Of a stretch of DNA of 26,649 nt, positions 19,127-22,562 are shown piece by piece. The stretch is from positions 1-26,649 of IMG/VR virus record IMGVR_UViG_3300030037_000043. One strand, given 5' to 3'. Every line of letters starts with the position of its first letter. Position 1 is the stretch's first letter. The notes under the pieces are model-generated. The model was not told the DNA's origin. It saw only the letters and a list, made by a program, of their open reading frames with translations, and made no database searches. A program made the position numbers and the translations under genes. The DNA is from a virus. Its lineage: Duplodnaviria > Caudoviricetes.

Positions 19127-21238
19127 ATGGAGTATTCACGCGAACAATACATTGATGCACTTCGTAAGGCGCACGATGCTGGCGATGAAGCGGCTGTCGT
19201 TTCTATCGGTCAGCAGCTCGACGCTATGCCTGAAAAGCCTGCTGCTCTCGAAGGCACCTATGAGCATCCATTAGGTTTCGAGTTAGAACGCGACGGTAAC
19301 GCCTATCAAGCCCTTGTCGGTGCAGGAGAAGTCGTCGGTTCTGCTGTCGATGGCGTTCAAGACCTCTACCTACGCGGCTTCGGCACCGATGAAGAGGTCG
19401 CTGCTCACAATAAGCGGGCTGACGCTGATGAGGCCATCTATGATGAACTGGCAGAGTACTCACCGGCTGCACGTTACGGCAATGTCGGCGGTGAGGTTGC
19501 ACTCGGTCTCGCTACAGGTGTCGGTACAGGCGCGATAGCACGCGGAGCTACGACTGCTCTTACAGGAGGAGCCAGGGTGGCTGCCGGTATGGGCGTTGCT
19601 GCTACTGAAGGTGCGGTCGTTGAAGGTGTTCGTAATCGCGGTGACGCCCTTGATCGGGTACTTGCTGCGGGTGAAGGTGCTGCCTTCGGTGCCGCTGGCC
19701 AGGGCGTTATGGACATCGCCGGTAAAGCTATCGGTGCTACAGGGCGTCGTGTCCTCAAGAGCGGCGTCAAGAATCAGATTGTCGGTGCGGGGGATGAAGC
19801 AGCAGAGGCGAGGAAGCTACAAGCCTCCCGCGACGGCGGCTTCCTTCTGGATGATGCCGATGCCTACGTTGATCGTACCGCCATTGCTCGTCGTGACGCT
19901 TTACGCCGCGATGGTGGCGATGGCGGCTCTGCACTTGCTGCCCGTCATGCTGGAGCTGAAGATGATGTAACGGCGGCGGCCCAACAGTTCGTCGATAACG
20001 GCGCAGAAGGGGCGGCTAAGCTCGATCTGAATGCACGCTCTGATAACTTGGCGAGTGGCTTACGGTCACAACGCGCCTCTGCCTGGGCTGAAGTCGATGG
20101 CGCTTACGAGCAATGGCGTATGCACCCTGATATTGAGTCGGCACCCCTTGAGACTGCCCCGATTCAGGAGAGGCTGGGTGAGGTCTTCAAGTTATCGAAG
20201 AACACCGCTGACGGCTCAATCCATAGGAAGCTGCGCGGTCTACTTGACCAGTATGGTGTGACTACTTCAGGGCTCAGTGAAGTGGAAGTACCACTCACTG
20301 CTAAGACTTATGAAGACCTCGTTATCGGTATCAACGGCCTCTACAGCCACAATAACAATTCAGCCTCTAAAGTGTTAATGCACGATGTCCGTGAGTTACT
20401 GGAAGAGGCTAAGTTCAACATGATGGACTCAGCACCCGGTGCATCGCGGGAGGCTATCGAACTCGGTGAAGCTGCCCGTTCCACCCGTAAAGCCTTCGCT
20501 AAGGAATGGGAGCGGGGCGACATCGTTGATAAGTTAACCAGCAAGACGCCAAGCGGTGAGGAGTACCGAGCTAAACCTGTCGATGCTGTTCGTCATCTAA
20601 TGAACCCGCGTAATCTCGACGACCTCAAAGGTATCAAAGACAAGATGGCTTTAAGTAAGTCACCGGAGCATAAGCAGTTCTGGTCAGACGTGCAGGCAGC
20701 CCCTTTATTTGAGGCGATGGAGAAGGCGACTAAGGGAGGTCGTGTCACTTCTACTGGCGCACCTATCTTTAACGATAAGGCGTTCATCAATGAGTTCTCG
20801 AAGTACACGGACAGCCAACTCACAGCGCTCTACGGTGCTGATTGGGTGAAGTCGTTGAAGAAGGCCGGTAAGGCATGGCGTCTGCGTGAAGCCCGCCCTG
20901 ATTGGCAGTCTAATATGAACCCTTCAGGCTCCGGCGAGATGGCGCATAGTCTCGCTTCAGCGGGTATTCGTATTGCAGCCTCCAGAGGCGCAGGTGGCTC
21001 TATTCTCGCTATCCCTGCTGCGATGAGTGGCTTAGGTCAATGGGCAGCTAAACGCACCGCTGGTAAGGACACGGCGAAGCTACTAGCGGGCAAGCTTCCC
21101 AGTGCTTCCACTCGACTCACTGAGGGTCAGGTAGCCGCTGCTTTGAAAGAAGCATGGCCGAACCCTCAGTTCCTCCAGTTCGAGAGTGCCTTCGCAGGCA
21201 TGGCGCGGGCCTGGGTGCGCTCAGACTCACCTGAATAA
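19127..21238 (+). CDS. large internal virion / DNA transfer protein
   Basis: 703 aa, AAGGAGG RBS; N-terminal ALRKAHDAGD..A motif and Gly/Ala-rich membrane-like stretches; last gene of the late operon. Confidence 0.7.
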   Translation: MEYSREQYIDALRKAHDAGDEAAVVSIGQQLDAMPEKPAALEGTYEHPLGFELERDGNAYQALVGAGEVVGSAVDGVQDLYLRGFGTDEEVAAHNKRADADEAIYDELAEYSPAARYGNVGGEVALGLATGVGTGAIARGATTALTGGARVAAGMGVAATEGAVVEGVRNRGDALDRVLAAGEGAAFGAAGQGVMDIAGKAIGATGRRVLKSGVKNQIVGAGDEAAEARKLQASRDGGFLLDDADAYVDRTAIARRDALRRDGGDGGSALAARHAGAEDDVTAAAQQFVDNGAEGAAKLDLNARSDNLASGLRSQRASAWAEVDGAYEQWRMHPDIESAPLETAPIQERLGEVFKLSKNTADGSIHRKLRGLLDQYGVTTSGLSEVEVPLTAKTYEDLVIGINGLYSHNNNSASKVLMHDVRELLEEAKFNMMDSAPGASREAIELGEAARSTRKAFAKEWERGDIVDKLTSKTPSGEEYRAKPVDAVRHLMNPRNLDDLKGIKDKMALSKSPEHKQFWSDVQAAPLFEAMEKATKGGRVTSTGAPIFNDKAFINEFSKYTDSQLTALYGADWVKSLKKAGKAWRLREARPDWQSNMNPSGSGEMAHSLASAGIRIAASRGAGGSILAIPAAMSGLGQWAAKRTAGKDTAKLLAGKLPSASTRLTEGQVAAALKEAWPNPQFLQFESAFAGMARAWVRSDSPE

Positions 21239-21257
21239 CCATTAACAGTTCCTCTTT

Positions 21258-21296
21258 GACCACTCAATACCTTCGGGTTGCGGGTGGTCTTTTTTT
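21258..21296 (+). terminator. intrinsic terminator of the late operon
   Basis: GACCACTC...cTTCGg...GGGTGGTC stem followed by T7. Confidence 0.85.
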
Positions 21297-21330
21297 GCTA
21301 CACAATCGCGAGCCATCATGGAGACCACAT

Positions 21331-21522
21331 TTGCGCCTATTACTCGTTACAGCATTACTCATTATTCTCACGGGCTGTATGCCTACAGGCTACACGCAAC
21401 AACAATGGGCAACTAAGCCACTAGCCCAGGTAGAGGCTATCTGTAGCGCGGAAGTCAGCTCTAATCCTCTCGCCAGTTACGAGTTATGTATGGAAGCTAA
21501 CGGCTGGAAAGGGTACTACTAG
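21331..21522 (+). CDS. small lipoprotein (63 aa; lipobox LTG|C)
   Basis: TTG start at 21331 with GGAG 7 nt upstream; MRLLLVTALLIILTGC is a signal peptide II; two further Cys in the mature part. Confidence 0.75.
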   Translation: MRLLLVTALLIILTGCMPTGYTQQQWATKPLAQVEAICSAEVSSNPLASYELCMEANGWKGYY

Positions 21523-21525
21523 CAC

Positions 21526-21550
21526 AAAAAGGGAACCCGTTAAGGTTCCC
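21526..21550 (-). terminator. intrinsic terminator ending the minus-strand transcript
   Basis: Minus strand: GGGAACC-TTAACG-GGTTCCC-TTTTT. Confidence 0.85.
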
Positions 21551-21762
21551 AATAGTGGAGCGCGTTGTTCACTAATTAGTCCTGGTTACTAGCATCCAGG
21601 GTAGCTATTACGCTGCTACAGCCATACGGCACGCCTCCGCTTTCACAGAGGAGAATCCCGACTCTCGGTGCGCATCCAGTAGGTTACTCCCACCAGTCCG
21701 AGTGATACCTGTAGTTTCAGGTCGCAGTTTGAGCATCGTAGAGAGGCTTGCCGGGTATTAGG
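21551..21762 (-). ncRNA. candidate structured non-coding RNA (family not identified)
   Basis: About 210 nt without an ORF. At least seven abutting stems, a GAAA tetraloop, and several pairs that are G-U only on the minus strand. Ends directly at a terminator. Confidence 0.6.
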
Positions 21763-21975
21763 TTAAGCGAGTTGCTTGGCTTCAAGTGTGCGCGTCGCGG
21801 GGCAACAGACGCACGCCTGCTGTACCGCGTAGACATCGAAGTAGTCGAACTCAATACCACCGCCAAGACACCACGGCTTGCTGAAGCTACGCAGGTAGGT
21901 ACGGTGGCCTTCCTTCCAGATGTGCTTACAGCGTCGTGTTGTGAGCCGGGTGTAGAAGCGCTTGAAGACGTTCAT
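21763..21975 (-). CDS. small Cys-rich hypothetical protein
   Basis: 70 aa, ATGA-coupled to the upstream gene; CxH...CxxC possible Zn-binding pattern. Confidence 0.7.
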   Translation of the reverse strand: MNVFKRFYTRLTTRRCKHIWKEGHRTYLRSFSKPWCLGGGIEFDYFDVYAVQQACVCCPATRTLEAKQLA

Positions 21976-22562
21976 ACACCCTTACCTTCAGCCTCATGGG
22001 CCTTCGACACGATCAAGGCGGCTTCTGCTTTTGTCGAGGCGACCGCTGCCTCTTCTGCCGTTTGCTGCCATGCTTCTACCTGCTGGACGAGGGCGGCTAG
22101 TCGATCTTCAGCAGCCTCCTTAGCACTCCCTTCAGGCTCAAAGCCAATCAGTAGATCAATGCAATGCTTCGCCTTCCGTAAGTCCTCAATACCGCCCTTG
22201 TCACGAAACCGCGTAATGTACTTAATCGCGGTGTGCTGGCAGGCATCCAGGCCGTTCTTCATGCTGTATTCCATCGGCTGAATAGCGAGGTGCTTGTAGT
22301 GGTCGCCGCCTTCCTGAACGTCCAGCGCTGATGCTTCGACCTCCAGGTTTGCCGCTATTGCCATTGAGGTTTCAGCTATGTGGACGTGCCCTTGCCGACT
22401 CTCACTCCACCGTCTGAATGACTCACTCCACTCATTAGGCGTCGCGTCGTTTAACGACTTGCGTACTGCGGCATCGGGTGTGCCTTCCCCTTTCCCCACC
22501 AACGGGGCATCGACAGCACCCAATTCCTTACCTATCCGTGTTCCAACATTTCCGGTAGCCAT
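21972..22562 (-). CDS. DUF3310-domain protein (T7 gp1.7-like putative nucleotide kinase)
   Basis: GGDHYK...IQP.E....AIKYITR...KGGIEDLRKAKHCI signature; AAGGAG RBS located inside the exonuclease gene. Confidence 0.8.
   Translation of the reverse strand: MATGNVGTRIGKELGAVDAPLVGKGEGTPDAAVRKSLNDATPNEWSESFRRWSESRQGHVHIAETSMAIAANLEVEASALDVQEGGDHYKHLAIQPMEYSMKNGLDACQHTAIKYITRFRDKGGIEDLRKAKHCIDLLIGFEPEGSAKEAAEDRLAALVQQVEAWQQTAEEAAVASTKAEAALIVSKAHEAEGKGV

Follow-up and report, generated by a model that had tools for sequence, protein, structure and literature searches.

A predicted modular phage RNA carrying an abiF antitoxin motif and its possible role as a decoy antitoxin

A non-coding stretch at the end of the minus-strand gene block of a tailed-phage record is one of a family of phage sequences, conserved and uncatalogued, with a predicted RNA fold, in which a motif known from AbiF antitoxin RNAs appears to be built into a four-way junction. 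Since one arm of this RNA copies the antitoxin and no toxin gene adjoins it, we favour the reading that it is probably a decoy antitoxin, presented on a modular scaffold, that would block host RNase toxins of the AbiF type (Abi_2, HEPN). The window, meaning the whole stretch of 26,649 nucleotides analysed here, is a 26.6-kb record (G000) that is 34% complete and classed as a provirus. A preliminary description made from the letters alone had proposed a structured non-coding RNA that fits no family at this locus; the RNA is indeed uncatalogued and reads from the minus strand, but one arm is the Rfam abiF motif, overlooked there at 21750-21725, and a partial family assignment therefore follows.

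The plus strand of the window carries terminase, portal-like and capsid genes and the minus strand exonuclease, HNH and endolysin genes (all PHROG matches), the latter preceded by a DNA-polymerase-like ORF recognised by eye. On the minus strand, a 70-aa ORF with its stop codon at 21763 precedes the RNA locus, and an intrinsic terminator (21550-21523), similar in sequence to one in Klebsiella phages, follows it; the terminator had been announced beforehand, and its stem was found where expected. Neither a PHROG family nor a relative among 80 related loci was found for the 70-aa ORF. Domain 1 and module B of the RNA (Table 1) are absent at all 80 phage loci with a related exonuclease, searched up to 4 kb, and in the two closest phages, with the same gene order, the stop codon is followed directly by the terminator; the window RNA is therefore an accessory insertion between the two. 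Two further observations concern the surroundings. The closest relative (L239:4-394) contains group II intron domains about 3.6 kb upstream of its exonuclease, and the plus strand of the window encodes, at 21331-21522 in the interval from the late-gene block to the terminator of the minus strand, a 63-aa ORF with a TTG start. This possible lipoprotein, with its hydrophobic leader and lipobox-like motif (LTGC), has no relative in the 80 related loci. On the minus strand, positions 523-1023 match an anti-restriction protein family (PHROG 2059), which would be a second counter-defence gene of this phage.

Table 1. Predicted elements of the RNA locus and its borders, in 5' to 3' order of the minus strand
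Feature	Position	Strand	Basis or remark
70-aa ORF, function unassigned	21763..21975	-	RNA begins a few bases past its stop
Domain 1, four-way-junction RNA (P1, abiF arm P2, P3 hairpin, P4 arm)	21655..21757	-	model R1 and covariation
P1 5' strand CCCG, partner 21660-21657	21752..21755	-	covariation
abiF antitoxin motif	21725..21750	-	Rfam RF03085 positions 6-31 of 37
P2 stem AGC 21748-21746 / GCU 21734-21732, 11-nt loop	within 21725..21750	-	Rfam abiF alignment
CAAA-type single-stranded linker after P2	21731-21724	-	Rfam abiF alignment
P3 hairpin (stem ACCUG/CAGGU, loop AAACUA), conserved flanks	21704..21723	-	homologue search
P4 arm: 5-bp stem, inner 8-bp hairpin P4a (21696-21676), 7-nt 3' bulge AUGCGCA	21664..21702	-	covariation
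Conserved AGU joiner and P1 3' strand CGGG	21657..21663	-	homologue alignment
P5 hairpin, optional module, loop type GU-n-AAGC / GUAYAGC	21634..21651	-	recurring counterpart in members
P7 hairpin, immediately before module B	21601..21619	-	covariation in 4 sequences
Module B: 5-bp hairpin, loop AU(n)RGUAA, unpaired ACUAAU tail	21575..21600	-	pattern and alignment
Intrinsic terminator, end of minus-strand (replication) gene block	21523..21550	-	stem 21550-21531

Homologues were collected in two steps. A pattern for the abiF loop retrieved 84 viral stretches, two of which run on into the P3 hairpin of the window and ten of which have the junction form, and a pattern for the P3 hairpin retrieved 17 viral and at least 120 metagenome stretches. 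Many homologues have the same order of P1, abiF-type P2, P3, P4, a three-base joiner and the P1 partner. A model (R1) built from 20 homologues with the window excluded scores domain 1 of the window at 64.9 bits (E 2.9e-15); in the alignment of these 20 sequences, 90.8% of the cells are paired, double changes occur at 13 of 19 pairs, and the covariation score is reached by none of 500 shuffles. R1 matches 65 of the 100 loci searched at E <= 0.001, with the seeds matching by construction and the lowest six (24-28 bits) resembling chance hairpins, and domain 1 is present at about 60 distinct viral and metagenomic loci. On the 65 rows, an alignment fitted to the model, covariation is 0.516 versus 0.133 in shuffles. 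Across the family, 35 G-U cells stand against 9 C-A cells, which fixes the minus strand, as had been argued from the G-U pairs of the window, and favours an RNA over a DNA operator.

The idea that these are chance hairpins in a spacer deserves next to no weight. It can call on the folding energy, with an MFE z-score against shuffles of -0.29 for the whole stretch, at odds with the expectation that the locus would fold better than shuffled controls; the values for domains 1 and 2 are -1.55 and -0.32. Against it are the homologues, anticipated as a check in the preliminary description, with compensatory changes in P1, P2, P4, P4a, P7 and module B, and slid controls whose covariation reaches at most 0.11 compared with 0.52. 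MFE z-scores are uninformative here and the support comes from the homologues; judged by covariation, a chance origin of domain 1 and module B can be considered refuted.

As a conserved structure the RNA thus predicted is real, although it is drawn differently from the fold first proposed. All helices named in the preliminary description are present in the minus-strand sequence at the coordinates given there, and homologue covariation supports the closing CCCG/CGGG pairs (P1), the CUCGG/CCGAG stem (P4), its inner hairpin P4a (seven pairs counted in nine sequences) and the hairpin at 21619-21601 (P7). The cloverleaf fared worse: its closing GCGU/ACGC helix has a pair probability of 0.18 and shares G21634 with the GNRA hairpin, the hairpin 21630-21621 has a pair probability of 0.33 and no counterpart in a four-sequence alignment, and the hairpin 21580-21571 is contradicted because ACUAAU is conserved and its partner AGU is not. 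The repeats remarked upon, CUGGAUGC and AGUAACC, do occur twice each, but a stretch of 801 bases contains 21 two-copy families of 7-11 nt, these two included; the AGUAA loop of P4a, which is the first copy, varies among homologues. That the RNA is neither a tRNA nor a tmRNA agrees with ARAGORN (0 genes) and with the lack of a corresponding Rfam match. Two other classes were likewise rejected: no Rfam model of a self-cleaving ribozyme matched, and a presumed resemblance to 6S RNA did not survive comparison, with no Rfam 6S match and with R1 and the module B model R2 both failing on the E. coli ssrS locus (L409).

The match to the antitoxin motif is partial and close. RF03085 scores 29.2 bits in the window, below its gathering score of 37 (E 3.8e-5 within the record), and is the one informative Rfam match; across P2 stem, loop and 3' bulge, 23 of 26 positions equal the consensus. 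The 20-nt core is identical to the motif beside an Abi_2 gene (L075), and a toxin encoded beside a loop one base off that of the window (L042) matches PDB 8VZ6 at E 3.5e-114. Within three edits of a true antitoxin core are 16 of 66 rows versus none in shuffles, with edit distances overstated by 1 through a base dropped in extraction and six of the 66 rows being probable chance matches. The same haplotype classes recur across the family. In true antitoxins the AGC/GCU stem is combined with an NAAA bulge in 9/9 cases and the CGC/GCG stem with NAAA in 0/15 and NACC in 13/15; the corresponding figures for the phage RNAs are 13/16, 2/18 and 9/18, drawn from the 36 of 64 members in which a canonical P2 could be parsed (L414 and a single match in L419 were removed by hand), and kinship among the sequences inflates these statistics. 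The basal stem does not close right after the bulge: its P1 partner strand follows some 65 nt further downstream, with P3 and P4 enclosed, and these two hairpins inserted at the bulge alter the geometry and keep the Rfam score below threshold. The window RNA is not a full member of RF03085.

Nor is it part of a full AbiF toxin-antitoxin system. An Abi_2 gene was found beside none of 65 members (flanks from under 100 to 2000 nt) and in none of the 27 phage records searched, a set that left out 11 metagenome records and includes 16 junction carriers, five of them complete. The 67 distinct viral matches to the abiF loop split into seven with a flanking Abi_2 gene, 30 with a tRNA no more than 500 nt away, and 30 without either; in no case do the two coincide. 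The RNA might still be the antitoxin of an AbiF-like toxin of the phage itself, whose gene would lie outside the recovered sequence or be so divergent that Pfam Abi_2 misses it, and the incomplete, provirus-flagged record and the AbiF systems carried by prophages would suit this. It is nevertheless a far-fetched explanation, as true abiF motifs abut their toxin gene, the five complete junction carriers have no Abi_2, and the junction form is absent at 38 viral Abi_2 loci (out of 79 submitted) and at 28 bacterial ones, where R1 gives only P2-level scores of at most 21 bits.

Some observations on true Abi_2 loci are added here. AbiF is common among hosts: of 300 genomes from the class to which the Vibrionaceae genome G001 belongs, 26 have Abi_2 (G042 and G144 are only non-matching members of the class tallies), and many of these genes carry simple abiF hairpins upstream. 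At L075/L360, L413 and L419, abiF motifs flank the Abi_2 gene on both sides or occur twice nearby. Other Abi_2 subfamilies (L361, L364, L376, L391, L399, L406, L407) have different conserved-looking leaders with no abiF-pattern match, which are possible further classes of antitoxin RNA. An element that we take to resemble C4 antisense RNA recurs downstream of domain 1 in L087, L091, L092 and L193 and upstream of abiF in L068 and L084; it has no Rfam C4 match.

The remaining arms of the junction bear on the main rival to the decoy reading. P3 is invariant in members that were retrieved with P3 as the search pattern, an invariance partly built in by that pattern; the L018/L021 group, retrieved through the abiF pattern, has the inner pairs swapped and provides independent evidence for the ACCUG/CAGGU hairpin of the preliminary description. 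The hairpin with the GNRA loop described at 21651-21634 (P5) recurs in similar form in 20 of 63 members, compared with four upstream controls, no reverse-complement controls and 5% of shuffles, with a pattern that was set after the data had been seen and rewritten from a first version matching 5/63. Several members lose or distort P2 (L193, L185, L090, L100, L237) yet retain P1, P3 and P4; the scaffold therefore seems to have a role beyond the abiF arm, which points to a second function in P3/P4. According to the rival, the core function would lie in P3/P4 and the junction, as a sponge for another host protein, a ribozyme or an element for processing or stability of phage tRNA arrays, with the abiF arm as optional cargo. 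We consider this rather unlikely. Apart from the P2-less members, it draws on the 8/63 members that start 1-13 nt after a tRNA and the 9/63 that end within 60 nt of one, on a P3-like hairpin that occurs without the junction in two crAssphage records, and on module B, present in many phages without domain 1. Opposed to it are the partly search-made invariance of P3, the failure of any ribozyme or other Rfam family to match, the 51 of 65 members with no tRNA within 500 nt of available sequence (partly owing to short flanks), and the faithful antitoxin haplotypes, unexpected in neutral cargo. The hairpins of the two crAssphages, cr53_1 (L326:1501-1521) and cr4_1 (L329:1501-1521), are perfect, have the identical six-base loop and lie in a conserved non-coding stretch.

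Downstream of the junction, P7 has 20/20 cells paired and double changes at three of five pairs in four sequences. Module B, which corresponds to the hairpin proposed at 21600-21581 and upholds it, lies 3' of domain 1 in the window, L011, L133, L180, L185 and L231 and, weakly, in L137; six of these seven sequences were in the module B model. A pattern with free stem positions retrieved 60 viral stretches (40 distinct). In 24 of the distinct copies all three free positions continue the stem as pairs, and 23 of these lie outside long ORFs; of the other 16 copies, 14 lie inside ORFs. In 22 aligned copies, all 110 cells are paired. Domain 1 was detected by R1 at 0/60 module B loci, which means that the modules move independently of each other. 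For module B a pseudoknot was considered and rejected, its partner not being conserved. P7, module B and the other downstream modules have no Rfam family match and no bacterial cognate was found for them; as predicted from covariation, the junction and module B are two RNA motifs with no Rfam family. Module B also stands at the start of a 1-kb unannotated, hairpin-rich gap of Pseudomonas phage phCDa (L085:1459-2470), which may hold more non-coding RNA modules. In a group of about 15 related phages (L440-L488), another conserved non-coding stretch some 110 nt upstream precedes module B and a tRNA array, and no Rfam family matches it, save for weak int-alpA matches further off.

Searches beyond phages returned no cognate of P3, of the junction or of module B. 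The P3 pattern gave nine matches in GTDB, all overlapping ORFs and none with the junction, the pattern being too narrow because a required T is missing in many members; in the phylum of G002 it gave one match in 301 genomes, again the coding one. R1 found nothing in 151 genomes (30 candidates scored per genome, no positive control), and a plasmid search for domain 1 gave one match, in a coding region. The module B pattern was absent from 401 genomes, the six weak matches that R2 gave among 151 genomes from the phylum of G003 each overlap a long ORF, and module B was found neither at six AvcD-like or 22 Abi_2 loci nor on plasmids.

All but one of the 65 family members lie outside long ORFs and 14/65 are within 500 nt of a tRNA (flanks under 100 to 2000 nt). 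A sigma-70-like promoter accompanies 9/63 members, eight with a -10 box ending 9-12 nt before the start, compared with 2/48, 4/46 and 3/45 in controls over a 43-nt window; the eight members that start right after a tRNA are not among these nine. No sigma-70 promoter was found near the window copy. A cis-acting element, that is, a captured abiF-type leader serving as attenuator or 3' stabiliser of its phage transcript, could be imagined for an RNA placed between stop codon and terminator, the more so as true abiF motifs precede terminators and regulate in cis, according to the accessible part of PMC12373285. This is improbable, given that no same-strand gene follows before the terminator, that 76 ORFs neighbouring members comprise unrelated phage genes with no shared family and no Abi_2, that some members have their own promoter, and that the closest relatives terminate without the RNA. 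As a separate observation, toxin-less simple abiF-type hairpins are packed between or beside tRNAs in cyanophage-like, mycobacteriophage and Bacillus phage sequences (L009, L024, L028, L033, L036, L051, L062, L086, L327, L328), and RNA-repair genes (RtcB, PNKP, RNA ligase) adjoin some orphan abiF or junction RNAs (L013, L098, L123).

The decoy reading can be put into a sequence of steps. Host shut-off during infection would drain the antitoxin and free AbiF, and a stable RNA supplied by the phage would replace what the host has lost. The window RNA, having neither its own promoter nor a tRNA just upstream, would arise from the 3' end of the replication transcript, and its relatives from their own promoter or by tRNA-array processing. 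The P2 loop and linker would then occupy the AbiF enzyme and keep this anti-phage RNase inactive, the four-way junction would stabilise and present the abiF motif, and P3, P4, P5 and module B may bind further proteins. Of the functions suggested in the preliminary description, an anti-defence RNA or protein sponge is now the best reading, but a tRNA-like cloverleaf decoy and a packaging RNA are unsupported. A region of phage sk1 DNA was reportedly protective against AbiF in a study of 2000 (PMID 10612752).

Several known systems supply the parallels. [quoted passage not shown] With the abiF RNA RF03085 (AbiFr / RCd22; PDB 8VZ6), as far as the accessible text of PMC12373285 describes it, the window RNA shares a basal stem, a 3-bp P2, a CUCU-type loop and a 3' bulge; unlike AbiF antitoxins it has no toxin gene found with it, further modules follow, the Rfam score is below gathering and the basal stem closes around two inserted hairpins rather than after the bulge. 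The different bulge geometry, and the single motif of the window RNA where RCd22 has two, argue against the decoy. By analogy, the window RNA likely works like a pseudo-antitoxin, although it falls short of full membership both in RF03085 and in an AbiF system. The model is pseudo-ToxI of phage PhiTE, which the accessible part of PMC3475682 presents as a type III antitoxin RNA that the phage carries as a non-coding copy, the toxin being absent. There the toxin is ToxN and tandem repeats are expanded in escape mutants, whereas here it would be the HEPN protein AbiF, and a single motif sits on a multi-arm scaffold (the record has one abiF match, and no repeat longer than 11 nt occurs in 21200-22000); unlike pseudo-ToxI in that source, the predicted window-type RNA is spread over dozens of unrelated phages.

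Two other cases are more distant. The lytic cyanophage S-CREM1 has, among its non-coding RNA genes, an orphan abiF sRNA annotated as a simple 37-nt Rfam match, its role unconfirmed and no junction form or antitoxin-decoy reading given in the accessible portions of PMC9964418 and PMC12197685. Phage tRNAs that counter PARIS and Septu are, in the accessible part of PMC13728456, phage RNA genes, often in arrays, that offset RNA-cutting defences; they replace the target tRNA, whereas the window RNA, which is not a tRNA, would block the enzyme. No AbiF decoy is reported in the accessible parts of PMC12283969 and PMC13728456, abiF is not mentioned in PMC9602691, and the accessible supplement of PMC10690425, other than files 1 and 2, contains no motif match. 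The literature search returned no report of the window RNA or of an abiF decoy, and supplements of related surveys may list the motif.

Taken together, a modular phage RNA family around a known antitoxin motif is, on comparative grounds, real and uncatalogued. It is possible, though doubtful, that its members are multivalent decoys, in which interchangeable modules (the abiF arm, P3, P4, P5 and B) would each jam a different RNA-controlled host defence protein. AbiF has been described as a toxin-antitoxin ancestor of Cas13. If the multivalent reading were true, the unassigned modules would be baits for defence systems yet undescribed, and an RNA-based counter-defence against this ancestral family would be widespread, embodied in the orphan abiF hairpins that sit among the arrayed tRNAs of cyanophages, mycobacteriophages and Bacillus phages. 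Simple orphan copies are present, unannotated, in the cultured phages SBSphiJ5 and P59 (Bacillus), Lolly9 (M. smegmatis) and S-SZBM1 (Synechococcus). Unannotated gaps in the tRNA arrays of phages would have an explanation if the decoy reading were true. The literature search turned up no RNA by which a phage counters AbiF, and the window RNA is a candidate for one; the junction and module B may themselves be usable as baits toward their protein targets.
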